DNA of 60,655 nucleotides from Psammoneis japonica (lineage: Eukaryota), in NCBI GenBank assembly GCA_008632985.1, contig QPGO01000308.1:1-60655 (forward strand), read 5' to 3'. The notes under the pieces were generated by a model. It was not told the DNA's origin, made no database searches, and saw only the letters and a program-made list of their open reading frames with translations. Both the position numbers and the translations under genes were made by a program. Below, piece after piece: positions 9,051 through 50,261 of this stretch. The first letter of the stretch is position 1. Each line of letters opens with the position of its first letter.

Positions 9051-9375
9051 GTGTGTTCCACACCAGACATTGTAGAACACACCCAGCATGTTTTGATTCT
9101 CACAAATGTTGAAAATGGAAAGCCTCTTTGGCGCTTCGCGAAACAGGGAGAGCATGAGACAATTTCATAGAATGTCACACACAGCCATTTGCATGCAACA
9201 CATTTGGTGCAATCCAAAAAACTGTTCGATGTGTCACAGTTCAGCAGTGCGAGGTCCCACCTGGAGCTGAAACGCGGCTTTTCTCGCTCGTTTCCAGCGC
9301 TTTTGTCATGGTTTTGAGCAAGAAGGCTGCAAAACAAAGACCTGAATTTGCTTGCAAAGCTCAAAGGGTTGGCAT

Positions 9376-9765
9376 GACGCGTTCCAGGTCTAGGTGGGAC
9401 CTCGCACTACTGAACTGTGACATCGACAGTTTTTTGAATCACGTCGTATGTCGCACACGTAGATTTCTACGTGATTTTTTCGATATTTTGTGTCATTTTA
9501 CGGTACACTTATTGAGCGATCCGTCCAACAACTTTTGACATTTTTTGTTACAGCGCGATTCTATAATGTCTTAAGAATCGCGTAGGGCAGGCGCATTTGC
9601 AAAAACGTTGAGTGGCAAGAGGCATAATTGTACCACAAACTTGGCAGTTTATTTGATGTTGAAGATAAATATATCCATTAATTTAATTCTCGTACTACGG
9701 AGCTCGCACGTAGAATTCTACGGGCCCAATGTCACACGGAGTCCCACCTAGGACTGGAACCCGTC
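9376..9765. mobile_element. Non-autonomous TIR element (MITE), ~390 bp, possible 4-bp TSD GCAT
   Basis: Left end gacgcgttccaggtctaggtgggac; right end gtcccacctaggactggaacccgtc (inverted); gcat at 9372-9375 and 9766-9769; AT-rich non-coding interior. Confidence 0.75.
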
Positions 9766-16030: not shown

Positions 16031-16438
16031 CCGTACAAAGTTTACTACCAGATGACATTGTACATTGGACACATGTTCGGTCGCGGATCATGTGATTCAA
16101 AAATACCTGAACTATAAGTGAACGTATAATGGACCCGAAATATAAACATACAGATTTATTAGATTTCAAATTTGAATCACCTTGCCCACGGGATTCAGAC
16201 ACCCGTTGTTGTTTTCAAAATATCCGATGGAGATGCCAAAAGAAACAACGCGCTCGTCTCACTATTTTGCAAGAGTCAACAAGTTGAGAAAGTTACAAAA
16301 AACAAACAAGGTAAAGCGCTATTCTGTCACGGTGTGCTCTCATGGACACGAGCGAGTGTCAACAACCAACGTTGTTTCTTACTTTGTGTTTGTTTTCTTT
16401 TCGTTCTCTCCATTATTTGCGCAAAGAATTCCAAAAAG

Positions 16439-24277: not shown

Positions 24278-24901
24278 CTAGCTGATCCGCAACCTCACTG
24301 TTGTATTGTGGTGCGAGCAAGCGCAAGAATTCCGCCGCCCTCGATCCATGTTGTCTACTCTCACTGTGATTCCCTCATGCTCGGTAAATCCCGTTTCATT
24401 ATTTGAAGCATGAGCTTGATCACCAGGAGTGGATCCTAACGCTGGTCCATGCTGTTTCCCACCTGAATCCCCCGTTCCATCCGGATTTTGCGGACCCAGG
24501 TTAGCGCTAGTTCTAGCGTTGTCCGGGTTCGTGCAATCAACGGAGCGCAAGCGCTTGGCCCTGGATGAATGGCTCAATTTTTGCATCAAGTCCTCAGTGG
24601 CGGCCTTCTCCGGTAACTCAAAGAACATGCTCAAGAGTGCACGCTTGGACCCAAAGGAAGCATCAGAAAGGTCGATTGTTTTTTTCTTCGATGTATACTC
24701 TTTGGCAAACAGGGTAAGCGCGGCAACGGTGTCTTCCGGAAGAAGCTGCTGCGTCTTCTGCTGTTTGTATGCGTTGAACGCATTGAAGGTTTCTGCGCTA
24801 TTGAACGAAGGATTATTAAAATCGGCTGCAGTGTACCCACAATTCTCAAGGTAGGCACGATAATCCTCTCCAATTCTATCCCAAGGAGGAGTCGTCGCCA
24901 T
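24278..24901 (-). CDS. Hypothetical protein, 207 aa, possibly truncated
   Basis: ORF with a good ATG context and protein-like N-terminal half; no recognisable domain. Confidence 0.4.
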   Translation of the reverse strand: MATTPPWDRIGEDYRAYLENCGYTAADFNNPSFNSAETFNAFNAYKQQKTQQLLPEDTVAALTLFAKEYTSKKKTIDLSDASFGSKRALLSMFFELPEKAATEDLMQKLSHSSRAKRLRSVDCTNPDNARTSANLGPQNPDGTGDSGGKQHGPALGSTPGDQAHASNNETGFTEHEGITVRVDNMDRGRRNSCACSHHNTTVRLRIS

Positions 24902-25089
24902 GGTTGCTTGTTGTTGCTTGCCTTATTCTTTTTCCCATTTCTCGCGTTGTTACGAGACAAACGGCCGACAGACAGACAAATGCGACGGAAGAGTCGATTT
25001 CACGATTTCCGTCGTCCCCGTGCTTTTTGTGTGGCATTCCATGCTGACAATGGCGTGCCACCGATGACGCCGTTGATTTTAATTTTTAT

Positions 25090-27190
25090 GTGCCAAAATG
25101 CACCAGTTGTGTTGCACGGTGAGTGACAAGCATGGATGTGCACCCACAATGACCCTGGGTGCAGTTCTTTGTGGTTGAATTCAGGGCATCATCAGAGGCC
25201 GAATGCAGCGGCTTGTTCCACTTTCCTTTTTGCAAAATTTTTTAATGTGCATTGTTGAAATTGTCAATGAGCCAAATTTGAAAACTGTCAGCAACAATGC
25301 TCAACAAACTGCAGTTGTTTTGTGCATTTCATCTGAGATGTCTCATCAGCTTTTCTTGCACAAGCTTCAATCAAGTGCAGCCACCAGCCATGCAACAAGA
25401 GTGTCCAATTTAGAGTTGGGGCTGACATCTTTTTCTTGTGATGAATTGTTTGGTTTCCTTTTGATGGTCATCAATTTGAACTTGGTTTCAACTTTGGCCC
25501 TCCCCACTCATGTGCACCATGTGTCTTTGCATGTGTGCAGTCTGTTTCGCGCACAACAAGCCTGTCCCGCCCTCATTTTGAACTCCTCTTCATGCGTGTG
25601 GCTGCTTCCCAGATTTGTGCAGCCCCCAGCAGTTGGTCTGCAGCATTTTCAGCATTTTTTCTGTCCTCAGGCTGTGCTGAAAAAAGAAGGAGGGGAGAAG
25701 TGTGGGAATGCAGAAGCAGACCACATCACACAGGTTCCTGCGCGCAATTCAATGGCCCAGCTCACCTTTGAACAACACAGAGCTGTGGCTTGACAGTGTG
25801 CCAATTGCACACCTTGCGCCCCCACCTTCCTTTTTGTCCTCATCACAGTGCTGATGGGTGAGATTGGCATCAAATCATGTGCCATTGTCACTCTGCACTG
25901 CAAGAAAAATGAAATGGGCCGTGGCAGAGAGTCCAGTCAAATGTTGCTGTGGTGTGGTGTGGCATGTGCTGCTGCCCACACAGTTGATTGACCCACGTTG
26001 TGGGAGGAACAAGTGCACATGATGCTCCCAACTTGAGAGACTCCCTGACAACATCCAGAGGCACCCAACAACATGAGCAACAAGGTGGTTGCCATGAGAA
26101 GAGGAGCACTCACATGAGAGTCAACCAACTGATGACATGCTGCCCCTGGCATTGCTTTTTGTTGCGCAGTGCTTGCACCTCTCAAGTGCTTGCATCATTG
26201 TTGTTGTCTTGCCATGGCATGGTCTCTCACTTTCTCTTTTGCTGTCTTGTCGCCAAGTGCCCTGGGCTGGTTGTTGACTTCTTGGTTCTGGCATGGCAGA
26301 TGACAACAAAAGGTGGCTTCAACAAAGTCAACACTGTGCTTCTGCTGCTGGGGGACTCTCAGAGCATGTGCGAACCCAGTGACCCACTTTGGCTTCTCAG
26401 AGATTTGCCATTGTTGAGCAACCATCTGTTGTTCATTTGAGGACACCAGCTGGAGCAATGTTGGTGGCTGTTGTGAATGTTTTTGTTGCTCAGGAGTGAC
26501 AAGAGAATCTGCTCAAAAGCTGCTCATCATTTTGGAAAGAGCACGCTTGTTGTCAATGCCCCACATTGTCATGATCTTCATGTGTGGCCACACTGTGTGC
26601 ACTGTTCTTCTTGTGGCGCAAACTTTGGAGAGAGGCAAACCACTTTGTGCACTGCAGGGCCTGCAGATGTTGCACTCTGACTCAACCCACAAGTGGGCTG
26701 CAGAGAGTTCATGATGAATTGTCTGGGCCACATCGTGCTCCGACAAGTGTGGTGCGTCCTGTTGTGTTTGCTGGCGCCCGCTCATCCCATCCCGTGTGTG
26801 CCCGTGTTTCTGTCTGCACAGAAACCTGTGAGAGTTTCACGCCTCTGCACAAGAGTCACTGTAGACAACATGTTCTGTTCATTCTTTTGAGCTTGTGAGC
26901 AGCTGGGACATGCACTAAAAGAAGGGACTGCAAGCAGAATGATGCACGCACGCATGCGTGTGCATCGCATGCATGTCAATCAACCTTCTGAGTCACAAAC
27001 GCCTAAACTGCATAACACAGGTTCTCGCTTGCACACTGCAATCACAGAAGAGAACCATGAACCATGATGGCATCTATCAGAGGCTGTCTTTTGTGTCCTC
27101 TCCTCTCGCTGATGCACGTGCAACAACAAGGCGTGACAGGGAAAAAAGTGATCCTTCCCATCATGCCTATTGCCACTTCATTCGAGCATG
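25090..27190. repeat. TpA-depleted tract (unidentified degraded element)
   Basis: TA nearly absent, TG/CA excess, spurious Cys/His-rich ORFs. Confidence 0.7.
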
Positions 27191-27301: not shown

Positions 27302-28171
27302 TTTGAGCGCATGTAGATTTCTCGTGAATCGAATCGCGATTGTTTTCAATGTGCGTTCGTGATAAATTGCAAGTGCATTCAAAAAACGCGAGTCCAACCA
27401 GAAAACGCGACATCGACCCCGTCTCGTTGTTCTGATTCCATGATTTGATATCGCGTTGTTGTTCGTCGCCGCGATCTGTTGGGGGTGTATCGGACAACAC
27501 GATTGATTTCAATCACGTCGTGTGGGAATGTAAATAAAAGGCGGGACCGGATGCAGTTGTACATGTACGTCCTCATGGTATGTTCCGAGCGCATGGTCTC
27601 CGCGATTCGATGACAGCTACAAAATGTGCGGAAAGATTGGAAAACGCGAACTAGATCGTAAATGCGAAGCTGTGTCTTGGTTATGCAACGATGCTTGTTC
27701 ATCCAGAGAATACATAAATCAAGAAAAAGCATCTTACAACGCTCGCCGCAACAATGAAAGGAATGTTTTGAGTGCATGTAGATTTCATAAAAAAACGCGA
27801 GTCCAACCATGAAAATGCGACATCGATCCCGTCTCGCGGTTTTGATTCCATGATTTGACATCGCGTTGTTGCACGTCGCCGCGATCTGTTGAGAGTGCAT
27901 CGGACAACACGATTGATTTCAATCACGTCATGTGGGAATGTAAACAAACGGCGGGACCGGATGCAATTGTATTTGTACGTCGTCATGGTATGTTCCGAGA
28001 GCATGATCTCTGCGATTCGATGACAGCTGCAAAATGCGCGGAAAGATTGGGAAACGCCGAACTAGATCGTAAATGCGAAGCTGTGTCTTGGTTATGCAAC
28101 GATGCTTGTTCATGCAGAGAGCACATAAAATCAAGAAAAAGCATCTTACAACACTCGCCGCAACAATGAAA
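27302..28171 (+). repeat. Tandem duplication of the upstream region plus ATGAAA of the lectin gene (27302-27759 and 27767-28171)
   Basis: Two ~400-bp near-identical copies, both ending aaaaagcatcttacaac.ctcgccgcaacaATGAAA; only the second continues into the CDS. Confidence 0.9.
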
Positions 28172-28690
28172 TTATTACTTTCCATTACAGTCTCCACCTT
28201 GGCTATTGGATCAGCGAGCGCTCTTCGGGGCGTTTACCAGCTTAAAAACCATGCATACTGCATCGGAGCTGAAGGCGATCGGGCCAAGTACGTCTCTTGC
28301 AGTAACTCCAACACCCAATGGTATGTGGAAAATACCAATGGTGGCAGGATTCGTTTGGACTCCAACCGAAACAAGTGCCTCACGGCTGGGCATGGCGATC
28401 TTCTGCAGGACGGAACGAACATGCGGGTCAAGGATTGCAGAAACAGTTCATTGAAAAGGAGTCTCCAGACGTTCAAGCATCCGGGGGGGGAAATGATCCT
28501 CGAGGCCTTCCCGGATTACGGCGTTTTTGCTCAAGGTGACCCGCCTCGCGAGGGCAACATCATCGTTGTGAAACTGCATCAAAACCTGGGAGGGCGCGAT
28601 TATTCGTGGGACTTTGAAGACAGGAAGCTAGAAGGAAATGATTCCAATGGTGATGGCTGGGAACTGATTTTAGTAGAGGAGGAAGAATAG
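28166..28690 (+). CDS. Secreted ricin-B (beta-trefoil) lectin-like protein, 174 aa
   Basis: Signal peptide MKLLLSITVSTLAIGSASA; YCIG..VSC..TQW and KCLTA..VKDC..LQTF subdomains; RKL plus acidic tail. Confidence 0.75.
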   Translation: MKLLLSITVSTLAIGSASALRGVYQLKNHAYCIGAEGDRAKYVSCSNSNTQWYVENTNGGRIRLDSNRNKCLTAGHGDLLQDGTNMRVKDCRNSSLKRSLQTFKHPGGEMILEAFPDYGVFAQGDPPREGNIIVVKLHQNLGGRDYSWDFEDRKLEGNDSNGDGWELILVEEEE

Positions 28691-28869
28691 GATGATATGC
28701 AGGATTGAGGGGTTGGCATCTCGGAGACTTGGATCTATGCTCCTTGAACCTCTTGACTCATTGGGTGATTGATCGGTCTTTTACATATGTAGAGTACATA
28801 TAGTTCATGTTATTTATTGCTTGTTCCCATCATTGTCCACTCTCGACTTTTTGGGAATAAAGATTTACG

Positions 28870-30490
28870 ACGAAAGCACGTGAGTCCCACAGGCTCAAAA
28901 ACATGCACTCATGATCATCTCACTCGATTGTGACGTGGATTTTGACGCCGTGGTGCAACGGCGCACTTCACGACGACGATGGCAATGATCCCACCATTAT
29001 GACAATTGCCCAAATCCACACTTTCAGACTGGTGCAAGCCACAAACTGACTTTTGTCTGCAGAGGCAGTTGTCAGCCACTCTTGTAATTTTGCAAAGCAG
29101 CGTGCAAAATGTTCCATGTGAACAAAAACAGCATGCTTCCATCAATGCTGCATGCTCAAGAACAGGTCAAATGCTTGTGCTCCAATGCTGTGCACAATCC
29201 ATTGTGGGCTGGATGATGATGTGGTGGTGTGCACGCTTTCTGGCACCAGAGGCACAACAGCAGCAAACATGGTGATGGGGCAACAACAGCAGCTGAAGTT
29301 CCACAGTTGTGTTGTGTGTCTTTTGGCGTCATTTTGTGGTGTGTTGTGAGGGTGCCATGCTGGAATTGTGCACTTTCTCTGTGTGTGCAAAAGGTGCAGA
29401 GGGTTGCTGTGGGGCTTTGGTGCTTGCTGGAAAGAAAACAGCTCTCTGCAAAGGTCAGATTCAAAAGCCTTCTTTTGACAAGAACGTCTCTTGCAACTGT
29501 GATGAATGTTGCTGCAAGAAACCGGGGTGCACACCTGCTCATCATTTTCTGCTGAGCAAGGCTCCACAAGCTCATGGCATAAGATGCTGCCATTTTTCAA
29601 GTGGGCAGAACAATGAATGGTTGCACCACAAATTGGCGCAAAATCAATCTAAAATTGAGCAAAGGCAAACATGAATTTTGCACAGGGACACAAGAAAAAA
29701 ATGTGAGCAAGTGTCACAGCCCTGCCCACGACAGCTCTCATGTGCAGTCATGGGAAAGGTGGCACAGCTGGGCTGCACAGCCAGGTTGCACAGCCAGAAG
29801 AAGGTCACAGCTCTGGTGATTGTGTTCTCTCCATTGCATCCAACATCACTTTGTTCCTGTGCAAGCAAAGCAGTGGCATCTTTTTTCACCCCCACAGGCG
29901 GCACAGTCTGGCGTTTGTCTGACATGACTTGCCCTCTCACACTGCTGCAGCTTGTGGCAATGTGTTCCAGCTCTGAGCGGGACTCTGTTTGACACTGGGC
30001 TCATGCAAAATTCTGCATGTGAGCTCTGCAGCAAAATTGCCAGCTGATTTTCTCACACCACATCAAGAATGATCATGAAAAGGAGAAAAAAGCTGTTTTT
30101 GCAAATCAACAAACTCACTCAGCAGCATCAGCAGGCTTTGAAGGCATCATTTTGCCATGCTGCAATCCAGCCAGCCAGAGCTGGCGAATGTTGGGGAGGT
30201 GCTGGAGGATGACCCTTCAAAAAATGACGGTTTTCTGCCCAAGTTGTTTGCAAAAGCACGATCCAGCAAAGAAAGCTCAGAAGTGTTCCCTTGTCATGGT
30301 TGTCATTCTACAAACAGGCTTTGCATTGATGTGTGCGCCGTCGCCCTCTAGCTGGCAGGTGGCAGCTGGAGCAGTCAGTGCAGAGGTGAAACGGCGTGTG
30401 TCGCACGGCCAACGCGACGGGATGACCATGCCAGAACGCAATTGCGGACAGATGGACGACGAGCATGTCAGGCAGGCATTGCAGGTGGGC
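28870..30490. repeat. TpA-depleted tract upstream of the nested elements
   Basis: TA nearly absent; no credible CDS. Confidence 0.65.
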
Positions 30491-30830
30491 CCCACCCCTG
30501 AGCAAGAGGGTTCTCGTGTCAGTTGCTTCGGGTGTGCAGTGCTTGGTTGATTGCATGAAATGGTTCGAATTGTCTGTGCAGGCCGACACAGCGCTTGCAC
30601 GCTCGCAACACAGACATTGAGAGTTCAAAGTCATGTTTCAGTCTCTTTTCCAGGTTATTTCACATGTCCCTGCTCATTTTTCACGAGCTCTAATTTGCAC
30701 ACGAACCACATGCTGGTTCCTGTGCATTTGCGTGCATTTTGTGCCAGCCGCATCGTAGAGGGGTGTTGTTCGCCGGCCCTGACGAACTCTTTCTCAGACA
30801 CAAAATGCTTTTCACGACGTTCCGGCACAT

Positions 30831-30994
30831 TGCAGCAACTCACCCGCATGCTTCTGACACACAGCATCAATTTTGGATGTTAGATTGACACAGCCGTTTG
30901 AGAGAGGCTCACCAGCGTTCGCTGACACTTAGGCTCCCCTCTCTTTGGTCTACTCACTTCTTTGTTTTGACACCAGTTTCAGCTTGAGCTTGCA
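30831..30994 (+). repeat. 5' LTR
   Basis: Gap-free alignment with 36111-36274; 19 differences, all transitions. Confidence 0.95.
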
Positions 30995-31024
30995 CTGCAA
31001 TTGCAGTCAATTGTAAAGAGTTGA

Positions 31025-31234
31025 ATGAGAAACAACGACACAACTAACAGGCTTGCAAAACAAGAGAAAAGAATGTTGAGAGCGAAGGCAGCGAACTGGG
31101 CTTTGGAACAAAAACGGCAAAAGGAGACACGAAAACAACGAAAACAGGATTTGGCGATTCGGGTTGCACAACTCGAGTCGAAGGTGGAGCACTTGAAGCA
31201 GTTTCTTGGAGGACCAACTTGGCCTGATGAGTGA
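31025..31234 (+). CDS. Short basic/coiled-coil ORF in the Gypsy leader, overlapping the gag start
   Basis: 69 aa; KRQKETRKQRKQDLAIRVAQLESKVEHLKQFL heptad pattern. Confidence 0.4.
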   Translation: MRNNDTTNRLAKQEKRMLRAKAANWALEQKRQKETRKQRKQDLAIRVAQLESKVEHLKQFLGGPTWPDE

Positions 31235-32444
31235 TCGCGAGAGTCTTAAAGAACCGTGCATTTTGCATGCTGTGAAATTTGCTCATTTGGATTTGGAACT
31301 TGCGGGGTTGACTCAGTCGCATGATGATGGCAGCACGCGTGTGAAGAAGTGCCCTTGTTTTGACGGAACTAATGGCATTGAAGCGCTGTTGTTCATGGAA
31401 GATTGTTTTTGTAAACTGGCTGCAAAACTTGAATTCACTGCAGGTGAAGAACCATTTGACAATTTCGAGGAAGTGTTGACAGACACTGCTGAAGACAAAT
31501 GGTCCAATCTCACCGTGGCGATTCCGAATGCGCAAAAGACGGTGGCTCGTTTTGACCAAGAATTGGCTCGTTTTTATTTGTCACATTGTGAAACTGAAGT
31601 GCGTGACACGATGATTGAACACTTGCTCTCCCTCAAAAAACCACATGATGTTGAAGCACAGGCACACGCAGATCGAATGGAGACCTTGGTGCGATGCACA
31701 AACAAGTTGCCGGGAAATGATCCAGTTGTCACTCAGAACCAAAAGAAGAAGATGATCTTCGACAGCTTCCCTTTGTCGTGGCGCAAGATGCACACAAGAG
31801 CAGGACGCATGATTGGAAATGATGCGTCAGTGGAAATTGTGGCGTGTGTGAGCACGGAGAAATCATTTGCAGACAGAAACAAGAAGACTTCGAAGAAGCG
31901 CAAAGATGGACAATCGAAAGGTGGCGGCTCTGCCAAGAAAAAAGGCAATCGCATTGACCAAGAATCTCAATGTCCTTTGCATGCTCACAATCACAAGTGG
32001 AAAGATTGCGTCATGAATCCCGACTCTAACAACTGCTGTCCAAGAACTGATCGCGGAGGTCGCGGACATGGTGGCCGTGGCGGTCGAGGTGGCAGTCGAG
32101 GTGGAGGTCGTGGTTGTGGCGGAGCGCAAGGTCGTGGTTGGCAAGGCCGTTGCTGTCAAGGTCGTGGTGGTGGCCGAGGAAACTACGGTGGTCGCGGAAA
32201 CTGTAACTCTGGCGGCAACAGCGGCGAGCATCATGATGATGGTGGCTCTTGCATGCAATGTCAAAACGACACCCGAACCAATGCAGATGGCGGCGGTTAC
32301 GGCAATCCAGCCAGAACGGCTCCTCCCAATGATTGGTCTGCTGAAAGCCATCATCTTGATTCGACAGGAGGGCCTCGAGAGCATCGAGGTGGAACGGGAA
32401 GTTTTTGACCTGGTGGTCGCTTCTCGGGACGCAGTCGACACTGA
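31227..32444 (+). pseudogene. gag: Gypsy gag
   Basis: CPLHAHNHKWKDC knuckle-like motif and RGG-rich nucleocapsid tail; TGA at 32406 and 32442. Confidence 0.8.
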
Positions 32445-35400
32445 CCCAATGAGCTTGAAGAGCTGTCGTCCGAGTGTGTCACTCCTGATTTTTGTGTGTT
32501 TGATGATTGCACTGATTGCATTGATGATTGTCACACACACGCTGCTGATTTATTTGATGACGACGATTTCGGAAATTACACTGTGAATGACGAAGATGAT
32601 GTGGGAATTGAGTGTGCTGTGCCAACCCCAAAAACAAAACCAACAAAGCCATTGAGTGTGGTCCCTGCAACCTCACTCACGGCGCGATTCATTCAAGACA
32701 AGGAAAGCAAGCGCATGATGTGGGTGTTGCTTGATTCCGGTGGAACCCATTCAATGATTCATGCTTGGGTGTTGCCGGTTGGAGCAGTTCCAGCATTGGA
32801 AGAGACAGGAACGATTCGTGCAAAGTTTGGGACAACAGTGGGAGAACTCGAATCAACTCGTTGTGTTTGACTGCAGGACTTGGTGCTCCCTGAATTCAAC
32901 AAGACCAAACATGTTGACTGCATGCATGCGCATGTGTTTGACTCACCCTGCCAATGTGATGTGATCCTTGGACAGGACTTCTTGGCGAGAGCGGGCATCA
33001 CGTTGGATTTCGAACACGGAATTGTCAAGTGGCTCGGTTCAAGCATTGCAATGAAGCCGAAGAATCAACAGACTGGCATCCAGCAATGGCTCAATGATTT
33101 AACTGATGAGCCAGCCAATGATGATGATGTGTGGGACAGTTGCATCCTCGATGCAAAGTGTGAAGAGACGTCCCCGTCTGAAGCAGCTTCAGCTCAGAAG
33201 CATCTCACTGCCGAACAGCAAGAGAAATTGCATCTCGTGTTGGAGAAACACACTGCTCTTTTTGATGGCACCCTTGGCAAGCACACTGGCGAAAAAGTTC
33301 ACCTTGATGTTGACGCTGACGCCGTTCCGCACCATTCTCGAGCGCACGCAGTGCCGCACAATGATCTCGAGACTTTTGAGCGAGAATTAGATCACTTGGT
33401 GGCTCTTGGCGTTCTTGAAGAAGCCGGAACTTCGGAATGGGCTGCAGGTGCCTTTATTTGACCGAAGAAAGATGGTCGAGTGCGGTGGCTCAGCGACTTT
33501 CGGGAACTCAACAAAGCCCTCAAGCGCAAGGTTTGTCCCTCACCGATCATTCAAGATGTGTTGCAAAAGAGAGCCGGGTGCAAATTTCTTACAAAATTGG
33601 ATCTCTCAATGATGTGCTGTGCATTTGAACTGGACGACGATTCCAAAGATCTGACGACAATCGTGACACCCTTTGGAAAGCATCGATGCTGCCGTCTGGC
33701 AATGGGTTTGAAGCCAGCTCCAGATGTTGCGCAATGCTTGATTGAGAAAACTGTGCTTGACTTGGACGTTGACGCGTGCATTGATGATCTCGCTCAATTT
33801 GATGACAATTTTGACATTCACCTTGCTCGTCTCGACAAACTCCTGCAACGTTTGGAAGAAGCTGGATTTAAAGTGAACCCTTTGAAATGTGAATGGTGTG
33901 TGCAGGAAACGGATTTCCTTGGGCATTGGCCAACTCCGACTGGAATTCGTCCGTGGAAGAAGAAAGTGGAAGCCATTCTGCAAATGCAACCTCCGGAAAA
34001 CATCAAGCAGCTTCGTTCGTTCCTTGGTGCTGTGACATGCTGTCGCAACATGTGGCCTCGGTGTTCTCACTTGTTGAAACCCTTGACAGATCTCACAGGC
34101 AAAGGCTCGTGGACGTGGACAGCAGATTGTCAGGCAGCGTTCGAAGAGATGAAAGCAGCACCAGCGGCCGAGACGTCAATGGTGCACCTGAATCACAACA
34201 AACCCTTCCATGTCTGCACCGATGCCAGTGATTGCCAAATGGGTGCAGTGATTGTACAAGATGGAAAACCCATTGCACATTGGTCTTGAAAGCTGAACGC
34301 GGCGCAACAAAACTGCTCGACGATCGAAAAAGAACTCTTGGCCATTGTCGTGTGCTTCCGCGAATTCTGAACAATGCTCCTTGGCGGTGATTTGCATGTG
34401 TTCACCGACCACAAGAACCTTGCCTTTCGCACCTTGAATTCACAACGTGTGCTCCATTGGCGCCTCTTTCTGGAAGACTTTGCCCCTCAATTCCATTGTG
34501 TCGAAGGCCGCTTGAATGTCTTGGCTGATTGTTTTTCTCGTTTACCTCACATGGATCCTCCCTCTGAAGGGAAGAGTTTGGCTCCGGGCAAAGGAACTGT
34601 TGTTGATTTTGCTCCGCTCGATTCGAAGTTGGTGCCGAGTGAGGAACCATCCGAAGTCGAGGATTTCCGCGATGAGGACTTGGAGCTTGGCGCGTGCCGA
34701 TTCAAGTGTTGTCGCAACATTGAAAATGAAGGCCACTCACACTTCTTCTCTTTCTTTGTTGATGAGCCGGAGCTGTTTGATTCTTTTTTGAATTGCCCTG
34801 CGATGCAGGAGATGCAAAATCCAATGACGTTACAACGGATTCAAGAGTGCCAGTTCGAGGACCAACAATTGAACCAGATGCGCATTGCTCACCCTGATCA
34901 TTTTCTCGTGGAACATGTGAACAATCGACCGCTTGTGTGTTGTCGCACGCGATTGAATGATCCTCCAGGACAGTGGAAAATCTGTTTGCCGACTGCACTT
35001 GTGCCCGACATCTTATGGTGGCATCATCTCGTCCTTGGCCATGCCGGAAGCCAGCGCATGCGTGAAACAATCCAGGCTCATTGTTGTCACCCTGGGTTGC
35101 GTCGCATGTGTGATGAATGTTCTTGCGCTGATTGCCAACATGACAAAACTTTGGGTCCTGGCCATGGAGAGCTGCCCGAACAAGAAGCTCCATTGACTCC
35201 CTGGTCGGAAGTGGCGGTTGACCTCATTGGCCCGTGGAAAATCAAAGTGCCGAATGGAGAGATTGAGTTTCGCGCGTTGACCTGCATTGATCCTGTCTCC
35301 AATCTTGTTGAACTGGTGAGAATTGAGAACAAAACTGCTCGACATGTTGCCAACCAATTCGAAAACTGCTGGCTTGCACGCTGTCCCAGACCGAATCGAT

Positions 35401-35987
35401 GCATCCACGACAACGGCGGCGAGTTCACCGGGTGTGAGTTTCAGATGCCATTGCAACGAGCCGGAATTGATGATGTGCCAACTGCTTCATGCAACCCTCA
35501 AGCCAATGCCATTTGTGGATGAATGCACCAGACTGTCGGCAATGCACTGCGCACGCTCATTGCTTCTGATCCACCTCAAAACCTTCAGGATGCAGCCAGC
35601 CTCGTGGACGATGCTTTGGCAACTGCAGCGCATGCAACCCGCTGTGCTGTTTCCCGTTCCTTGCAGATTTCACCAGGTGCTGTGGTGTTCGGACGTGACA
35701 TGATCTTGGACATCCCAGCACTGGCAGATTTGTTGACAATTCAAGGCCATCGCCAGATGCTGATCAACGACAACTTGCGATGAGCCAATGCCAAGAGAAG
35801 ATCCTGCGATTGTCAAGTGGGTGATCAAGCTCCAGTCAAGCACATTGAGCCATCCAGACTCGAGCCTCGTGCTCATGGTCCTCACCCTGTTGTTCAAGTG
35901 CATGCAAATGGCACACTCTCGGTTCGTCGAGCTCCTCATGTGGTTGAGCGCCTCAACACTCGGCGCCTGATTCCTTTTCGCGGTTGA
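32445..35987 (+). pseudogene. pol: Gypsy pol (protease, RT, RNase H, integrase) in one frame with six internal TGA stops
   Basis: LLDSGG; DFRELNK, LDLSM, ACIDD (for YIDD); TDASD, EKELLAIV, TDHKN; HLVLGH..C..C, VAVDLIGP, DNGGEF, NPQANA; stops at 32868, 33459, 34287, 34368, 35520 and 35781. Confidence 0.95.
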
Positions 35988-36110
35988 TCAGGGGGTTTTC
36001 TTCCCAACACCTGGGTTTCCTCCTGTCATTGTCTTTGCTTTTGGTTTTGGTCCTTGGTTTTTGGCCCTTTGCATGATCCTCTGGTTCTTTCGGATCATAG
36101 AAGGGAAGAG

Positions 36111-36274
36111 TGCAGCAACTCACCCGCACGCTTCTGACGTGCAGTGTCAATTTTGGACATTGGATCAACGCAGCCGTTTGAGAGAGGCTCGCCAGCATTC
36201 GCTGGCGCTTGGGCTCCCCTCTCTTCGGTCTACTCACTTCTTTGTTTTGACATCAGTTTCAGCTTGAGCTTGCA
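36111..36274 (+). repeat. 3' LTR
   Basis: Preceded by the PPT and followed by TSD CACAT. Confidence 0.95.
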
Positions 36275-36387
36275 CACATGACTGCCGGCTCGGTGGACAC
36301 TGTTTCGAGTGCGTTTTCACGTAGAGCCCACTGCAGATGTAGGCATTCAGATTTAATTCGGTACAAATCTACGCAGCATTTTGCGTA

Positions 36388-36424
36388 GGGTGCACACGAA
36401 CCACCAGGTGGTTCGTGTGCACCC
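36388..36424. repeat. Perfect 18-bp-arm palindrome with a 1-nt spacer
   Basis: gggtgcacacgaaccacc-a-ggtggttcgtgtgcaccc, followed by an imperfect second copy at 36430-36459. Confidence 0.9.
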
Positions 36425-36701
36425 AAAAATGCACACGGACCAGCAGGTGGTTCGTGTGCGAAAAATCTATATGTGACGAAGACAACATATTTACCCCTCG
36501 GCGTAATTCACACGGCCAAATGTTTGCGTAGAGGCCCTCGCTCAGGGGTGGGTAGGCCCTACCGTAGCGGCGCAGGCGGGCGCGGCTTCGCTTCGCTGTC
36601 GATTGCGGCTCACCACATTTTTGCGGGAGTTTTCGCTTTTTTTTTTACCGGCATGATAGGCATCAGGGTCACACTCTTTTCTCAGTCTCGACGGATTCAA
36701 G

Positions 36702-39279
36702 ATGAATCTAACAGTTACAGGAAACGAAAGCACTGCTTCTATAAGCCACAATGAAGAAGAAAATCCGATAGCTGAAGACTCGGCAATTCATAGCTATGAA
36801 AGTTACCTGAAACAACAACGCCGGCTGAAAAGTCTGCGGCTGCACAACTCGCAAGCGCACTTGGCAGAAGAAGACATGGAGGAGGATCGATTGCATCAGG
36901 ATGAAATTAATAGATCAACCAGAAAGAGACTCGAAGTCATGAGTATTATCGGGAGACGACAGGCCTTTGTGATTGAGAGCGCCGAGTGGCAATCTGCTTT
37001 GAAGACAACTGCCGGTGACGACGACTTGCATCATGCAACCGATGACCACCCGAGCATTCCGTTTTATGCTCATCCAGTCCAACGCCAACGCTGGGGAGAC
37101 GAACAAGTGTTGCCTCATATTAATTGGGGCGACTTATTCTTTGATTTATTCTACGTGGCGGCTGCTTATAATTTGGGCAGTCTACTGATTTCTGCGCTCG
37201 ATTCCGTTCAGTGGCCGCGGGGTGTCTTGTACTTTGTTGGAATTTTTGGATCTCTTTACAACATGTGGGAAAATGCTGTCAACTATCAAGCACGATATAC
37301 TGTGGTCGATTACGCGCATCGTCTCTTTGAGGTGGTGCGCTTTCTCATTGTTGCGATTGCGGTGTTGCACATCAAGCCGATCGAGTTCCTCTCCAATCCA
37401 GAATCCATCGAGACGTTTTGTTTAGTGCTGTCGCTGTTATTGGAGAGCATTATGCATTTGGGTATTTGTTTAGAGTTGTATTTGCGCGCCGAGGGGGATC
37501 GCATTGCGATTCAAAATCATACGAGACGCAAAATTACCTACGGATCGCTTCCGGCGTCGTTGGTGTATCTGGCGGCTACAATCATTTCAGCCGTGCTTTA
37601 TTGGAATGGCAAGGATGACAGACCAAATCGTTTACTGGCAGACGAATATGGGACAGAGAAAGGTAGCGCTGCTGGGTATGCCGCTGATGATGGTGACATT
37701 AACTGGAACATTGCCGACCTTCCTTTGGCACTTTGCTTTGCTGCTTATGTCTTCAATGCATTTTACACAGGCTTTCGCAAGCTCCGGCTTTCCAATCAGA
37801 ATAACATTGAGGATATGCGTGATCATTTTGTTCCAAGCAACATAGATTATGTGAGTCGTAAAAGTGAAGGAACGAGTCGTTTTCATGATTTTGCTCTTTC
37901 TAACAACTTGTGTGATATATCTCCATTCCTATCCATATCGACAGATGATTCATCGGTAAGTCAGCGGTGCTCCTCTGTACATCTACTCGTCAATGATACA
38001 CTCTCACTAGCTATGCCCTGCCCTGTATGAACCCTAGGTATGGTGAATGGATCATGCTCATGTTTGGAGAGAGTATTCTCTCCCTGCTGATTGTTGAAAC
38101 GACCGAGTCCGCTCAATACTATGTTGCGGCAGGATTTGGTATTCTGACTGTGATTGTCTTGCAAGGTATCAAATTCGAGTCCGAACCGGTCCATGCCGAT
38201 GCACACGCGCTTTGGAGAAATATTCGAGGACAAATGGCCTTTGTCTATACCATTCAACTACTCTCCATGAGCCTAATTGCTTTTGGCGTAAGCTTCAAGG
38301 TTTTTCTAACTATGTTGAAACAAGAAGAAGACAAACCATACGATGACAAGTCCAATCGTCTGTTGGCTCCCACTCCGGCTGTGGAAGAAAATGCAGCAGC
38401 TGCACTTTATTGTGTTTCCTTGAGCGTTGTTCTAGTCGCGTTGGAATTGATGCTCTTGACTCATGGTGGTGCAAAGCACAATTGGAATCTCTTGTTTCGT
38501 TCAAAGGAGAATCGAAGCCTCAACTGGCCACTAGTCATGCTTACGGCTAAAAGTTGGGATTGATTCTGTTTGCCGCAACGCTGAGCCAGTGGCAAACTAA
38601 TCCGACAGCTCTGACTGCCATTGGATTTGTTGAGGTGGCTTCTCTTGCGTGGTCGAGAATACTTGGTTGGGGCTTGGTACACAAGAGAAAGGAAATCAAA
38701 CAAGCTGTCAGGACATCGATTGAAAAGATCAAGAAACCGTCGAGATCATGCGCGACGTCCCAACACAACGACAAGTGCTGTTCCCACCAATTTGGTCAGT
38801 CGCTGCCTTCTAGGAGAAAACGGTCGAAAGCCATGAAATCGTCGGAGTTGGAGGAATGCGCGGAATCGGCTTCTGAAATTGCATCTGAAGCTTCGTATTC
38901 CCAGACTTCGTTTCTAGCGTCCATCCTGGACACGTCCTTTGATGCCATTGTTGTGACGGACGACTACGGACTCATCAAGGAAGCAAACGAGACCGCGGTT
39001 ACCATGTTTGGATATGACAGCGTTTCGGACTTAGTGGGAGAGAGTGTGTCTATTTTAGTGGGAGCGCAGCACGCTAGAGTCCACGACCAGTACATAAAGA
39101 AGTTTCGTGATGAGGGACGCTCGTCGATTATACTTGGAAAACAGCGAGTATCCTTTGCAAGATGCAAGGACGGAAGTGAATTTCCTTGCACCATTGGTAT
39201 CAAGAAGATACCAAACAGTAACTTCATGGTTGCCTACATCAGAGACATGACACCGACGCACAGAAAGAAGGATAGCTAA
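36702..39279 (+). CDS. LtrA-like multi-pass membrane protein with a C-terminal PAS domain; exons 36702-37850, 37945-37955, 38038-39279; apparent frameshift near 38550
   Basis: WGDLFFDLFYVAA; spliced NIDY|MIHR|YGEWIMLMFGESILSL (LtrA-like motifs); PAS region ILDTSFDAIVVTD..N..A..MFGY..LVGESVSIL..HDQYI. Confidence 0.8.
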
Positions 39280-39579
39280 GAAATGTGAGGCCTGAAGTGC
39301 CTCGACTGGCGCTTTCAAGCTCTTCTCTTGGAAGATCCTTTAGACGTGTGCTTTAGAGAGAGGATGTGAAACAAACGACAACCAAAGCTGATGACTCTCT
39401 GCCACCAACCACTCTCTCCAACCACTTCGATTTCCTGCCCGTCACTGTTGAATGTGAAGTCCTTGGATCGTTGCGGACGTCTAGTTTCTTTCATCGTTCC
39501 TAAGCTGCTCCCTCCTGGTTTCAAAACAAAAAGACAAAAACTGAACTGCTGCACTTTCCCACTTTCGCTGCCCTCTAGA

Positions 39580-42500
39580 CAGTGACATTTCATTTTTGTC
39601 TGATGTGTCTCTTCTCAGTTTTCAAGAGCACCCTCTTTGATGCCAATGTTCGACCCAAGTCCCACATGTCTTTCAAGCATTTTTCCTCTTTGCTGTCTTC
39701 ACAACTTTCCACTTTCAGCCATTATCATGTATGCGAAGGACCATGACATGCTGCGCACCTTCTCCTCCAAAGGATGCTGTTAGTGGCGTAACCCGTTGGG
39801 TCGCTGTGCTGAGTGTGAGGGAGTCCAATGAGCAAGGCCCTGCCATCATGTCCTGCCCACCATCATGAACCGCACCCAAGCCGGCAACAATTTCTTGGAG
39901 GCTTCCATCCTTGACCATGCAGTCCAAATTTGAGCAGGGGCAACCTTTCTCAAAGAGTCAGACAATCATCTGATGGAGCAGGGCCAGCACTGGCAACCAG
40001 CCCACAGAGACATCTGTGACCAGAGTGACTCAGACAGCGGCATCTTGACCCACCTCTGGCTGCACAAATGCAAAGACATCATTGTGACCTTGCAGGGCTG
40101 ATGTGGATGTGGGGCAGCTTCAGCTGTTGGGGGCACAGTCACCTTTGGCACAGCCACAGCACAACCCAAGCAAGCCAGTTGTTGCATGCCGGGGTGGCCA
40201 AGATGGTGGCACCACAAATTGCTCACAGCAAGACATTGTGGGGAGTGCAGGATGGGATCAACTTCATTGTGGAGATTGAACCGGGAGACAATGGAGAGGG
40301 GTCAGTGGCAGCGCAGACAAGAAGTCAACCTGTGTGCTTGCAGATGAGAGGCACACTGGGCTGGAGGCATGGGACAAACTGCAACCCATTTACCCAAACC
40401 ATCAGAAAGGACTGCAGAATGAATTGCACAAAAGATCAATCATTGCCAGCCACCATGATGATGCCATGGCCAAGATCCATGTGGGGAGCTGCGTGTTGTG
40501 CTGGATGCAATGCTCAACAACAAGTGACAGAGGTGGCCAGGAGATGCAAGTGTCTCACCCAGTCTGGGACAACAGAACATTGGGACAGAGCAGGCTTGAT
40601 TGTCCCACATCATGAATGACAGCACACATGCCCACACCATGGGCAGAGAGAGGTTGCTGGCTGGAGGCTGGTGCTGCAGTCATTGGCTGGGGATGGTGGC
40701 AGTTCTTGGTCAGGAGGTGGCAGTGGTCTTAAGATTGCTGATGCTGGTGCACAATGGAAAGTGGGCAGCAGTGATGGCACCATGGTTCAGTGCACGAACC
40801 ACAGCAAGTGCAAGAAGAGGGGGTGTCATTGGCTCTGACACCTCAAGCTGTTCCTGAAAGCAGCTCAGGATCCCCACTGGGTTCTTCTGCAAAGTTTTCC
40901 AAAGCTGTTGCCCATGATTCATTAGATGTGGAGAGCAACTCATCATCCGGGAATGAGTGACATTGGTTGGGTGCCTGGCGCCAGTGTGTGCAAGGCCAAA
41001 CAAGTCTCAATGGTTGTGGGGGTGTTGTGGAACATCTTTCATGCCATCACAATGGGCCCAGCCTGGGTCAAACCCAAGCTGGCTCAGCTTGGTTGCTGCA
41101 AAAATGAGGTCAACCTGGTGTGGTGACCACCATCCATGTCAATTTGCCAGTGGCCTTGCAGTGCAAAAAACCATGCTTGCAGAAGAGCTGCCATGTTTCA
41201 CCATTGGTGGCGCAGGCGTGAATTCCTTCTTGTCAAGTTGTTTGGAGAAGAATGAGTTGCTGGGCATTGAAAGAGACACAGTGTGGGTGGGATGATCTGC
41301 ATCATTGGACCAGAGAAAGAGGCAGTTGGCCAGGATCTGTTTCACATGGGAGAGTGCTGCACTGGAGACTGCTGCAATTGCACATTTGCTTGACATCACA
41401 GGCAGCCCAGAAACAGCTTGAGGAGACCTTGGCATTTGACCTCACTGCCCCTCAGGTTCCTGTCCACAACATCACAAATGCAGCGGCATGTCTCATCAGA
41501 GTGAGTCTGCCACAACAGCAAAATCATCCTCTGACACAGAAAAAGGACTTCCTTGCCACTGACATGGCTGGTGCAGACACATGGTTCATGAGTGGTTGGG
41601 GTGAGGTGGATCTTGCAATGAATGATGCCATTTGCGTGAACACTTCACAGCTGTGGGGACCAGATCTTTGGGAGCACCAGGGAGGCAGAAGACAGCTGCC
41701 ACAACAGAGTCACATCACATGATCACATGTTCACCCAGGGAAGGCCACATGTGGTGGGCTGGGGTGGGGAGGCTTGTGCAAGCAATGGCTTGTCAAGGGC
41801 CAAGGGTGGATGTGAGGCCAGTTGAAGATCTGTGGCAACCATCGGGGGAGGGGCAACCTGCTGAGTTGTTTCAAGTCAAAGAGCAGCTGGGGTTCTGGCA
41901 GCTGGGTGGGTTGTGCAAAATGTGCTTCAACAAACGCTGCACATGTGGCCATCTTCAAGTGACCAGAGGTGGTGTCCACATGTCAAGTGTTGTGATCAGT
42001 TGCAGCAGAGGAGCATCCCACAAAGATGATGCTGAACATGCGGTGCTCCAGTTTGGCAGGGGGCTGCCAGTGTGGTGTGCACAAATGTGTGATCTGAGTG
42101 CACAGCACAGCCAGGTGAGCAAGAATCTCTGGGACCTTGACATTCTGTGAGATTCAAACAGGGTCTTTTTTCTTGTTGAATGCAACAGGTTGTTCTTTAA
42201 ATGGTGTGTGGCATGGAGGACTGCATCAGACCAGAAGGTTCTTGCTGGTGGACCCAATGAGTGGAGCAGTGCATGCACCACAATGCCAAAGGTGTCATGT
42301 GGATTTTGGCATGGCCATTTTGCACCAGATCCAGTCAGCTCAACAGTGCACCCATGTTGGAGACATGTCATGTGCAAAAGTCTCAAGACTTGATGAGTTC
42401 TCCACCTTGACTGGCATGAATGGCAAGATGTGGCCATCTGGGCACACATGGGTTCCAGCGGGGCTTTGTGCCAGGTGCAGGGAACACCCAAGGGCACCAG

Positions 42501-44690
42501 GTGCACACATCCACAACATTGTCCTTGATGCATTGCTTGTTCATCCATGGCTGTTGCATGTTGGGGCCAGAGGAGGAGGCATGCATGAAACCACAAGCAG
42601 TGCTGCCCCCCATTTCCCCCCCCCCCCCCACACACAAATTGCAAAAAGAAGTGGGCCTGCTGCTGCCACCACAGGTGGTTTGTGATCATTGAGTGAGGAA
42701 GTCCTTTGGTCTTTGGTGCATCTGCTGCTGGGAGCAGAGTTTTCCATGCTGCAGGGGTCACAAAAGTGCACTCAAGTTCATTTGAAGTGCACTCATCACA
42801 AGAGGAGGAACAAGAAACAAGATGCCCAGGATCCAAAATGGTGCACCACCACATTTTTCACAGATCACTTGTCTGTCAATTTTTTCAATTGGGGGACATC
42901 TCTCCCTGAACTCTTCTGTGGTGATGTTGTGTGTTGTGAGGTGTGTTGGTGCACATGATGACAGAGAGTGCCATGGACAAGATGGTGAGTGGAAAAACAC
43001 ACCCAGAAAAGTGCAAAAATGCACTTCCCTGCAAAGACTGCACACCGATGTGGCACAATTGTGAGAAAGCAAAGGGCTCCACACTCAAGAGACTTGAAAC
43101 TGATTTGCATGCAATGTCATCTTTCCAGAAAAGAAGATTTTCAGTGAAAGAACAGCACAGATTGAAGCTGCATCCAGGGGTTCCACAGATGCTCAGTTGA
43201 TGGAGGAACCGAGTGTTGGCATGCCAGCAACACAAGAGCCCAAGCATTGAGAGGACTGGAGCTTGCCCCACTGGCTCTTCATGTCAATGTGCTTCCCTGA
43301 TGTGGCTGGATCATGCCAGCTGGAAAAGATCAGAGTGTTGTGTCAAGCCACTGGAGTGCAGGGCATTGAAGGCCAGATTGCAAAGGCAGAGCAGCACCTT
43401 GCTGGCCTCTCACAAAAGAAAGCATCAACAGCCTGCACCAAGCCTGTGAGCCACACATCACATCTTGCAGTGAGCAGTGTTTTGGCATTTGGTGCACCCC
43501 TTCAGAAAACAACTGACGCTGAACTTGAAGACATGATTGACATGGATGAGGCAAAAATTCTTTCCTGAGTTTTCCACTCTTTCTGAGTTTTCCAACCAAT
43601 CACATGCAAAGATGTCGCCAGAGCACCAATGCCGCACAACTGGACTTTGTGGTCATGGAAGAGGAAGAAGAATTTTTGTGAGAGCAACATCTCCATGTGG
43701 TTGTCATTGGCACAAATTTGAGGAACAACCTGGAGCTGATGTGGTGCTTTTCATGAGTCTGCCTGTTGACGAGATTCTTGCAGACATTGGCCTGCAGGCC
43801 ATGGACAGCTTGGTTCAACACCATCCCATCTGGTTGTCTGGTCAATTCTCATGGTGGGTCACCAGGTGGGGTGTTCCTCACCCCCTGCCACCCGGTGGAT
43901 GACCCATCAAACTCATGCTCAACATGTTCAAAGGGGCCCTCAAGGGATGCTCTCACATTGGGAGATCTTCCATGATGCAGATCTTGTGCTGAAGTTGTGC
44001 TCTGTCATTGGAATTCTTGGCCCTCCTCACTGCCCTGGTTTTTGTGAGGTGGGCTTTAGATGAAAAACAACAAAACACAGAGAACAATCTGCGAGTGGCT
44101 GAGCCGCAGCTGCCCACGGAAAATGAAGCTTTCTAAAATCTCAGCACCCCTGGCCTGATTTGTGCACAAAAGCAACCCAGTGCGCGGGTTGGTGGCAGAC
44201 AATGCCCCTCACTTGTTCACTTGTGCACAAATTGCATGTGCATCAGAGCACCTGCTGGACATGCCCGGCACACAAGCCAACTTCAGCAGCTGCCTTGCAG
44301 GGCAAAATGTTGAAGCAACATTTGCTGTGCACAGATCTGCTGAAGTGCCACTGCCACTTGAAAGTCTCGGCACTCTTTTTGTCATTTCTTCAAGAAGCTG
44401 GGCAAGACGTTGATCACTTTGCCCTCTTTCAACCCGAAGCAAGTGCAAAGATGCGCCGCAATTGCTGCTTGATTGTTGATTGTCAAGCGCTGATTTAAGG
44501 AAGCTTTTTTTTCATGACGATGGGGGGGAATCTCCTCCCATCAAGTGCCTTCTCTTGACTTCTTGAGGCTCAGCGTCGCCCAACCCGGTCGATTGTGCCG
44601 GTGTGTTCATCATCGTCATGGCTGTGGTCCGGCAATGGCATCTTTCGCCCATGCATGGCGTGATCTGAAGAATGGAGCGGCAGACACAAC
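39580..44690. repeat. Large tract depleted in both TpA and CpG, containing Copia remnants
   Basis: For example, no TA between 40021 and 40390; CG also rare; boundaries approximate. Confidence 0.8.
41870..42530 (-). mobile_element. Ty1/Copia integrase and downstream region, heavily degraded
   Basis: VVDVCTWCPWVF (~IVD.YTRY.WVF), QGGEL, HGCTVELTG, LLHSLG..FWSDAVLHA..LKN, ATCAAFVEAHF..P.PQLLFDL; a pre-integrase-like LWCHHLGHPG also occurs near 40200. Confidence 0.75.
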
Positions 44691-49770: not shown

Positions 49771-49775
49771 CACTA

Positions 49776-50137
49776 TGGGGACATCCCGAATAAATTTAGC
49801 CAGTGGCTAAAAACCTCCTGTAGAATTCTACGGATTTCTCCTGGTATGCGATATATTTAATGATAACGCCTTTTAACGCCACCCCATTGTTTTCTTTTAT
49901 ATACATATTATTATTTGTAGTTTTTTGTTTTTGTATTCATTTTGAAACGCTTAAAAGCTAAATGTTTTATATGAACGAACGTTATAGTTAGCACCAAACC
50001 GTTACAGATATGACATTTATAGGTTCAGTACAATGGATAGTAAATACTTTTTGTGTAGAAAATATACCAGCGTACAAACCTGGTATGTGTCTACACAAAA
50101 TTTTAGCCACTGGCTAAAATCATTCGGTATGTCCCCA
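49776..50137. mobile_element. AT-rich MITE, ~360 bp, with ~37-bp TIRs, flanked by TA (Tc1/mariner-type target)
   Basis: ta|tggggacatcccgaataaatttagccagtggctaaaa ... ttttagccactggctaaaatcattcggtatgtcccca|ta. Confidence 0.85.
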
Positions 50138-50261
50138 TAATAGTGAACAAGAAGGAGGGGACCACCATGCAAACCAAATCAATGTCGAGGTTTGAGGATT
50201 CGCTCGGCCATGTCAAAGCCTGTACACAACACGACGGAGAGCCAATATTTTGTGACGAAAG

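Follow-up and report, generated by a model that had tools for sequence, protein, structure and literature searches.

In the mobile DNA of the diatom Psammoneis japonica, an A:T pair that is part of a TpA dinucleotide is converted to G:C, on both strands, at about 200 times the rate of an A:T pair elsewhere, and the amount of this rewriting follows the position of a copy in or beside a transposon-rich block more than its age. Both properties are described here for a Ty3/Gypsy retrotransposon contained in a stretch of 60,655 nucleotides (contig QPGO01000308.1, hereafter the window) and for its relatives in the same genome.

A retrotransposon inserted into a MITE

The element at positions 30831-36274 of the window is a Ty3/Gypsy retrotransposon with an intact 5-bp target duplication. 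It shows the LTRs in direct orientation with TG..CA ends, the short target duplication and the polypurine tract of this class, and Pfam domains in the sequence RVT_1, RT_RNaseH_2, Integrase_H2C2 and rve, where the location of the integrase 3' of the reverse transcriptase and RNase H corresponds to the Gypsy order. A Pfam scan of the frame at 31197-32408 returned no match. Over its whole length the element shows a TpA o/e of 0.08 and a CpG o/e of 0.81. The named relatives of a flanking gene place the host among the diatoms. Its features and those of its surroundings are as follows:

28950..30660, no strand: older upstream block poor in TA and CG (TpA o/e 0.06, CpG o/e 0.37)
30664..30830, + strand: left half of the MITE (7/9 TA lost, 0/11 CG lost)
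30826..30830, + strand: left copy of the target site duplication CACAT, present once in uninterrupted MITE copies
30831..30994, + strand: 5' LTR, 164 bp, TG..CA (3 TA and 4 CG remaining)
30995..36110, + strand: interior of the Ty3/Gypsy element, broken by several in-frame TGA stops
33462..34289, + strand: reverse transcriptase/RNase H stretch (275 aa, Tyr-free)
34371..35522, + strand: integrase zinc finger and core (Pfam matches slightly below the curated cut-offs)
36099..36110, + strand: polypurine tract directly 5' of the 3' LTR, assigned from sequence
36111..36274, + strand: 3' LTR, 164 bp (1 TA and 9 CG remaining)
36275..36279, + strand: right copy of the target site duplication CACAT, present once in uninterrupted MITE copies
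36275..36459, + strand: right half of the MITE, terminal repeat missing (1/7 TA lost, 0/12 CG lost, 1 transversion)
36460..39300, + strand: host genes (LtrA-like, PAS domain) serving as internal control (ordinary TpA o/e 0.60, CpG o/e 1.01)

The sequence split by the insertion is a MITE-like repeat of about 345 bp. This repeat is present at high copy number, with many copies 98-99% alike, and carries CCCT..AGGG ends and 4-bp AT-rich flanks, from which we take it to be piggyBac-like. No allele of the window's locus was found in the contigs of this genome, and a sequence joint that skips the element, at a depth of 870, derives from other MITE copies and does not indicate an empty allele. One junction contig reaches about 60% of the depth of the flanks, which hints at, short of proving, the presence of the element on one haplotype.

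The window contains further blocks at 7950-9040, 14300-16100, 24900-27050 and 39500-44600 with a TpA o/e of 0.04-0.15 and a CpG o/e of 0.15-0.65, the first two of which are inverted and diverged copies of each other; the frames scanned in these four blocks gave no Pfam match. Short inverted-repeat elements at 9232-9422 with 60410-60468 and at 49774-50139 (45-bp and 39-bp arms) are probably other MITEs.

Differences between the two LTRs

The LTR pair had been singled out in an earlier note for the nature of its differences, and a gapless alignment of 30831-30994 with 36111-36274 recovers exactly the 19 that it had listed among 164 positions, all of them transitions, with neither a transversion nor an indel. 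As that note had stated, 17 of the 19 reside inside YR dinucleotides. The probability of observing at least 17 of 19 in this context amounts to 1.7e-4, given that 78 of the 164 sites are in YR context, and that of an all-transition outcome to 5e-4, even under the assumption that transitions make up two thirds of all changes. When related to the column states over 30 LTRs of the family, 11 of the differences (sites 29, 30, 31, 35, 36, 48, 49, 52, 56, 57 and 101) coincide with columns containing TA in other copies and six (sites 19, 60, 81, 87, 97 and 116) with columns that are mostly CG, where CG was lost five times in the 5' LTR and once in the 3' LTR, while the remaining two (sites 95 and 143) are located outside TA- and CG-type columns. 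A comparison was also made to assembled contigs of one sample, which is possibly the assembly's own source; the long contigs listed all fail to span an LTR, and the 40 differences shown, out of 44, are all located outside the LTRs.

Two mutational processes in the element family

In a search of the genome with the LTR, the best 40 of 47 candidates were scored. Of these, 32 pair into 16 elements, 15 of which are distinct, as C26 occupies the same locus as C295 and was dropped; the other eight matches, without partner among those listed, were left out, and the 3' LTR of C152 was trimmed to 149 bp. Over 2,458 columns, the 15 pairs, with K2P values ranging from 0.006 to 0.139, differ by 177 transitions in YR context, 15 transitions outside it and 6 transversions, and this ratio of 192 transitions to 6 transversions does not refute the earlier reading of the window's pair on a family-wide scale.

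Full elements were aligned for 14 copies, excluding C295 and C26 because of a nested insertion. The copies fall into two subfamilies, with C10a being intermediate between both. C10a and C4 have 404 bp of their left flank in common (98%), and the target sites of C70 and C152 are unmatched, which may reflect recombinants or truncation. In the subfamily of the window, the internal transversion distance amounts to 0.8-4.1 per kb and the YR transitions relative to the window copy to 53-58 per kb, with 7 transversions in 5,114 internal columns separating the window element from its nearest copy.

The YR class comprises two processes that act on almost disjoint columns, a fast change of TA to TG or CA and a decay of CG to TG or CA that is about ten times slower. 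Of the TA-type columns, 68-94% were lost in 13 of the 14 copies and 34% in the remaining one, and of the CG-type columns 10-19% in all 14; copies that lost more of the one also tend to have lost more of the other (rho 0.56, p = 0.035, where common ancestry within the two subfamilies renders p-values across copies optimistic). A->G singletons outside TA-type sites amount to 0.004-0.009 per site and transversions to 0.0002-0.0025 per class. The hazards per dinucleotide in subfamily A are 1.75 for TA and 0.135 for CG, which arithmetically corresponds to a per-base excess over background of about 200-fold and 17-fold, rates that were obtained from column counts instead of a family consensus and that are approximate with inflated precision, since TA-type columns are partly defined by their own polymorphism. 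As only 5 of the 112 TA-bearing columns of this subfamily hold any CG, a site mostly stops changing once TA has been converted to TG or CA, and double changes of TA to CG number 4-5 compared to 254-326 expected under context-free change, a count that is partly limited by the column definition. The values for the base following the edited A on the edited strand are 0.50 for C, 0.47 for T, 0.37 for G and 0.27 for A, an order that is repeated in subfamily B. Transitions are about twice as common after A than after G, and the preference of TA over AA is about hundredfold.

Direction, timing and strand

The fast process proceeds from TA to TG or CA with a loss of TpA, which is the opposite of RIP. 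This direction is evident in the reverse transcriptase/RNase H stretch, where Tyr is absent from 275 residues, compared to a median of 4.6% in 120 homologues, and where Cys (10) or His (4) takes the place of Tyr in 14 of 14 columns that normally conserve it, with 106 of 112 other conserved columns matching. It is equally evident in the MITE, whose halves were compared to the majority state among 26 copies. In the left half there are 8 changes, all from A:T to G:C and 7 of them at TA, with 11 of 11 CG kept, and the loss of TA differs between the left and right half (7/9 vs 1/7, Fisher p = 0.04). Since TA is palindromic, T->C and A->G are indistinguishable by sequence.

The proposal that mutation took place after integration and independently in each LTR is borne out by the column states of the copies and by the agreement in their TG or CA outcome, which at 0.63 equals the level of 0.625 calculated from site bias, implying that most changes were not inherited. 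Both strands were changed at a ratio of about 54:46 (858 TG vs 718 CA; 686 vs 573), a skew that is mild but significant. At the target duplication of C118, the left and right copies have become different, CACCA in one case and TGCCA in the other, each derived from a TA step.

C295 and C26 are probably two haplotypes of one insertion, as judged by their common flanks and target site. They differ at 116 of 16,375 columns (103 YR, 9 other transitions and 4 transversions), with a single difference in the TA-normal flank over its first 2 kb. Both have lost some TA and CG that is still present in their counterpart, and it is mainly CG that has changed where TA is exhausted. By these differences, the process is apparently still running. 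Both versions contain a nested second Gypsy element, which retains more TA (TpA o/e 0.2-0.3) and bears most of the TA differences between them. In the region 28500-30520 of the window, a contig of run X1 shows 14 differences, all in the TA-poor block and 13 of them YR, of which four adjoin indels and those between CG and CA are without polarity.

The two exceptional sites of the LTR pair had in the earlier note been traced to a CTAA precursor and regarded as a hint of processivity, a suggestion for which support is weak or lacking. At site 95, the TAA state is found in 7 of 30 LTR copies, and the A following a TA site was changed to G in 20 of 479 cases after a same-strand edit of TA, in 16 of 803 after an edit of the opposite strand and in 3 of 475 next to unedited TA, which amounts to a small same-strand excess (p = 0.034 for the first two classes). 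At site 143 such a precursor is absent, with columns 144-145 reading CA in 30 of 30 copies, and processivity in the form of strand runs was rejected, as no same-strand runs were found at 10, 30, 100 or 1000 bp in both subfamilies. Any processivity is at most weak.

Effect of position

Over 30 LTRs, the number of TA left is correlated with the TpA o/e in the 500 bp next to the LTR (rho 0.65), a relationship that is also found between LTR TA and flank TpA within elements (rho 0.78, n = 15), and the two LTRs of C295 retain 12 and 0 TA. C15, C110 and C143 are located between TA-normal flanks and their LTRs retain most TA, with interiors that are 74-82% erased overall. The same test was carried out on the flanks of the MITE at 17 of 26 loci, after 5 truncated and 4 divergent-subfamily loci had been dropped. 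These 17 copies have lost 40 of 323 TA and 3 of 390 CG, and their loss of TA is anticorrelated with flank TpA (rho -0.71); the six copies flanked by TA-normal DNA on both sides have lost none of their 114 TA. There are exceptions, which include the 3' LTR of the window that is nearly TA-free though TA-normal DNA adjoins, C4, which is 94% erased between normal flanks, and two MITE copies that adjoin TA-poor DNA and show no TA loss. A second effect besides position is a difference between the two ends, with more TA retained in the 5' than in the 3' LTR (p = 0.009). A tandem duplication of about 410 bp at 27401-28222 is repeated yet not erased (TpA o/e 0.48, CpG o/e 1.56), and its mixed, ordinary spectrum includes 21 transversions in a partly poor alignment.

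Consequences for LTR dating

The concern that dating by LTR divergence overestimates age in this genome is supported by the LTR spectra of the family and by the relationship between K2P and private transversions, whose lack of correlation (rho 0.23, p = 0.43, n = 14) led us to reject LTR divergence as a clock. K2P is correlated with the TpA of whichever flank is poorer (rho -0.55, p = 0.04, n = 14; p = 0.10 for subfamily A alone). With a process that saturates when TA is exhausted, LTR divergence would mainly report on exposure and not on age. At the mutation rate of 4.77e-10 given for P. tricornutum in the accessible part of PMC6604790, the K2P of 0.132 of the window's pair would translate into 1.4e8 generations. 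The family-wide excess in age is 5.7-fold when dated by non-YR changes and 7- to 22-fold when dated by transversions for an assumed Ts/Tv of 3.5 to 0.5, a range that rests on 6 transversions, and LTR dates are thus inflated roughly 6- to 20-fold. Ages of transposons that are calculated from the P. tricornutum rate would be too high wherever the process acts, which may include the 'ancient' LTR peak that was described in a 2025 preprint for two araphid diatoms from identity and this rate.

Proposed mechanism and alternatives

The observations are best explained by a domain-guided deamination of adenine at TpA that is combined with a slower decay of methylated CpG, a view that we hold with somewhat better than even confidence. 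A Ty3/Gypsy element landed in a MITE and was subsequently rewritten in place; in the proposed mechanism, the target would be mobile DNA in silenced chromatin, a domain that spreads to its neighbours, and not paired homologous sequence. That such a silenced domain constitutes the target we consider likely. The underlying chemistry would involve a distributive deaminase of the TadA/ADAT2-type, with a need for T at position -1, that converts DNA adenine to inosine, and the CpG part would reflect ordinary decay of 5-methylcytosine, a combination whose prospects we judge as even or marginally better. Adenine deamination is suggested by the near absence of transversions and by the editing of DNA at TA by TadA-type enzymes, as illustrated by the off-targets of TadA8e, which are located at TA sites according to the accessible part of PMC13225742. 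The outcome would be an inactivation of the element by the conversion of Tyr to Cys or His and by TGA stops, in a genome defence of a polarity opposite to fungal RIP.

Frames that we labelled TadA- and ADAT2-like by reading their motifs are found in the genome; they look like the expected housekeeping genes and provide no evidence for the enzyme. None of the deaminase single frames scanned contains a fused chromatin-reader domain. One frame combines a zinc deaminase domain with a 2OG-Fe(II) dioxygenase, either as fusion or as exons of two neighbouring genes, and is the only unusual fusion among the deaminase frames. The genome also contains 27 DNA-methylase matches, on contigs that include C297, C10, C28 and C301, several of which are clustered, with internal stops, suggesting that the methyltransferase family is expanded or mobile. 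Diatoms methylate transposons via DNMT5, as described in the available text of PMC9998398, and the observed loss of CpG would most simply reflect the decay of 5-methylcytosine at positions of predicted methylation.

Identical mutations would also be obtained if a RIP-like process with reversed chemistry was triggered by homology between repeats. We regard this trigger as unlikely, even though the affected DNA is only repeated or mobile and diatoms contain a DNMT4 related to RID/DMTA (PMC9998398, in the text available). The main target in Bigelowiella natans is single copy, as stated in the accessible part of the preprint on this alga. In the present genome, near-identical MITE copies (>40 matches) are intact in TA-normal surroundings and changed on the side facing a TA-poor block, the LTRs of one and the same element differ by 12 vs 0 TA, those of C15, C110 and C143 were spared with their interior erased, and the tandem duplication at 27401-28222 was not erased, all of which leans against homology as trigger. 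The argument from the MITE has to be viewed with the caveat that this repeat is possibly shorter than a length threshold, which in RIP is about 400 bp. Slightly less probable is a route where TpA adenines in silenced DNA would become methylated (6mA) and the mark subsequently deaminated, in parallel to the decay of 5mCpG. It would be in line with a palindromic target that is changed on both strands and with the correlated loss of TA and CG, but the loss of TA in the MITE far exceeds that of CG (40/323 vs 3/390), which is incompatible with one mark, and we know of no methyltransferase for adenine in TpA. A shade below this ranks the incorporation of G opposite T, either during error-prone repair synthesis by a polymerase eta/iota-like enzyme or by failed mismatch repair in heterochromatin. 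The small tandem excess of TAA->TGG (20/479 vs 16/803) and the twofold difference between transitions after A and G would agree with such errors, whereas the hundredfold preference of TA over AA, the almost complete absence of transversions and the lack of strand-coordinated runs do not. Pol eta has a broad WA target and makes transversions.

The palindromic nature of TA, where T->C equals A->G by sequence, would also accommodate a modification of thymine to 5-hydroxymethyl- or formyl-uracil that mispairs with G. We deem this improbable; a search of the genome for Tet_JBP gave no match, and the positive control likewise remained without match. Still less probable is an old element that has undergone ordinary CpG decay and GC-biased gene conversion, or an artefact of assembly. 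Six of the 19 differences are indeed attributable to CpG decay, and the LTRs were checked on assembled sequence instead of raw reads, but the pair contains no transversion or indel, the internal region only 7 transversions in 5,114 columns, the change of A:T to G:C is confined to TpA, and the double changes of TA to CG remain at 4-5 vs 254-326 expected. Least credible of all is ADAR-like RNA editing or reverse-transcriptase error prior to integration. ADAR prefers U before A, according to the accessible part of the B. natans preprint (10.64898/2026.01.13.699255), and there is a mild excess of A->G on the sense strand; yet strands were changed at about 54:46, the LTRs differ from each other, MITE DNA and a target duplication were changed and two versions of one insertion differ. 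For the domain-guided deamination that we favour, the split MITE, the asymmetric LTRs and the two versions of one locus are natural controls that make the trigger testable, and if the enzyme was an adenine deaminase it would constitute a natural DNA adenine editor.

Occurrence beyond this genome

At the level of protein sequence, the signature of Tyr loss is not private to this genome. Six of 240 homologues contain Cys or His in at least five of nine Tyr columns and, among 147 further representatives, four close relatives are Tyr-free or nearly so, where the share of Tyr-free homologues is inflated by a query that is itself Tyr-free. The Tyr-free or Tyr-poor Gypsy reverse transcriptases, which are known from protein only, belong to six groups at 47-66% identity (P0128, P0176, P0364, P0388, P0389 and P0461) and come from JGI, Logan, NCBI and ENA. 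When five of these groups (P0128, P0176, P0364, P0388 and P0389) were searched in this genome and the best candidates scored, four showed identities of 59, 56, 54 and 55% and the fifth had no candidate at E 1e-120. Five metagenome loci of related Gypsy elements show no erasure of TA (o/e 0.45-0.71), and none of the 7 near-length and 1 longer matches named Cylindrotheca, Nitzschia or Ditylum is Tyr-converted, in databases that favour intact frames. The loss of Tyr could serve as a database-wide screen for the process. It is a tentative idea, about which we are more doubtful than confident, that diatoms and other SAR algae would harbour a natural, silenced-chromatin-guided DNA adenine editor that erases TpA, as a second, non-fungal mutational defence that would be common to Stramenopiles and Rhizaria and found in several further genomes.

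Comparison with known systems

The editing of retroelements by APOBEC and ADAR takes place before integration, on one strand and in runs. The process described here resembles it as a deaminase-type, context-specific change that kills retroelements, and differs in acting after integration, on both strands, without runs and also on DNA that does not belong to retroelements. As a targeted mutational defence of the germ line, textbooks list a conversion of C to T that is found in fungi only. In RIP, which operates in Neurospora and other fungi, C is changed to T at CpA, which creates TpA, in a reaction of the sexual cycle that needs RID and the pairing of homologous sequence. Common to both are dense, dinucleotide-specific transitions on both strands, which inactivate mobile DNA, leak into neighbours and corrupt LTR dating. 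In contrast to RIP, TpA is removed and GC raised in P. japonica, where the change is not that of C to T at CpA; unlike expected for a need of homology, near-identical copies of a MITE, albeit a short one, escape and the LTRs of one element differ in load (on RIP, see the abstracts of PMC3318451 and PMC2621366).

The decay of 5-methylcytosine in DNMT5-methylated diatom transposons, as far as covered in the available text of PMC9998398, shares the change of CG to TG or CA on both strands and the generation of in-frame TGA stops, but it does not involve TA, which is altered here about ten times faster. Engineered TadA8e adenine base editors likewise introduce A->G or T->C in DNA with a preference for TA (PMC13225742, accessible part); TadA8e was evolved in the laboratory and its diatom equivalent is hypothetical. 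We found no report of TpA hypermutation in diatoms in the literature searched, which mostly did not cover subscription papers, and a TpA-directed change of A:T to G:C is otherwise described in one preprint on a rhizarian alga.

This TpA-specific hypermutation of integrated NCLDV and virophage DNA in Bigelowiella natans (Mettrop et al., bioRxiv 10.64898/2026.01.13.699255) is the closest known system. As far as the accessible text of the preprint goes, it proposes an ADAT2-like candidate enzyme, with a rate per generation that is about 1000-fold and an activity in some lines only, and its main text does not contain the words 'diatom', 'LTR' or 'CpG'. Both systems are characterized by transitions of A:T to G:C exclusively at TpA, on both strands and in foreign or mobile DNA only, and by clusters that are poor in TpA and rich in CpA and TpG. 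They differ in their host, which is a rhizarian in one case and a stramenopile in the other, in their targets, which are viral inserts in the former and retrotransposons and MITEs in the latter, and in the mode of observation, which has relied on mutation-accumulation lines in B. natans and on the comparison of copies in our case (with an approximately 200-fold relative excess per A). P. japonica is distinguished by a CpG component, by the effect of position and by its proximity to saturation, with a TpA o/e of 0.04-0.15 compared to 0.45 in the NCLDV region of B. natans. The present element family displays such a process in a diatom, on transposons and near saturation. New in this work are the control provided by a split MITE, the position effect and the Tyr-free Gypsy proteins outside this genome.
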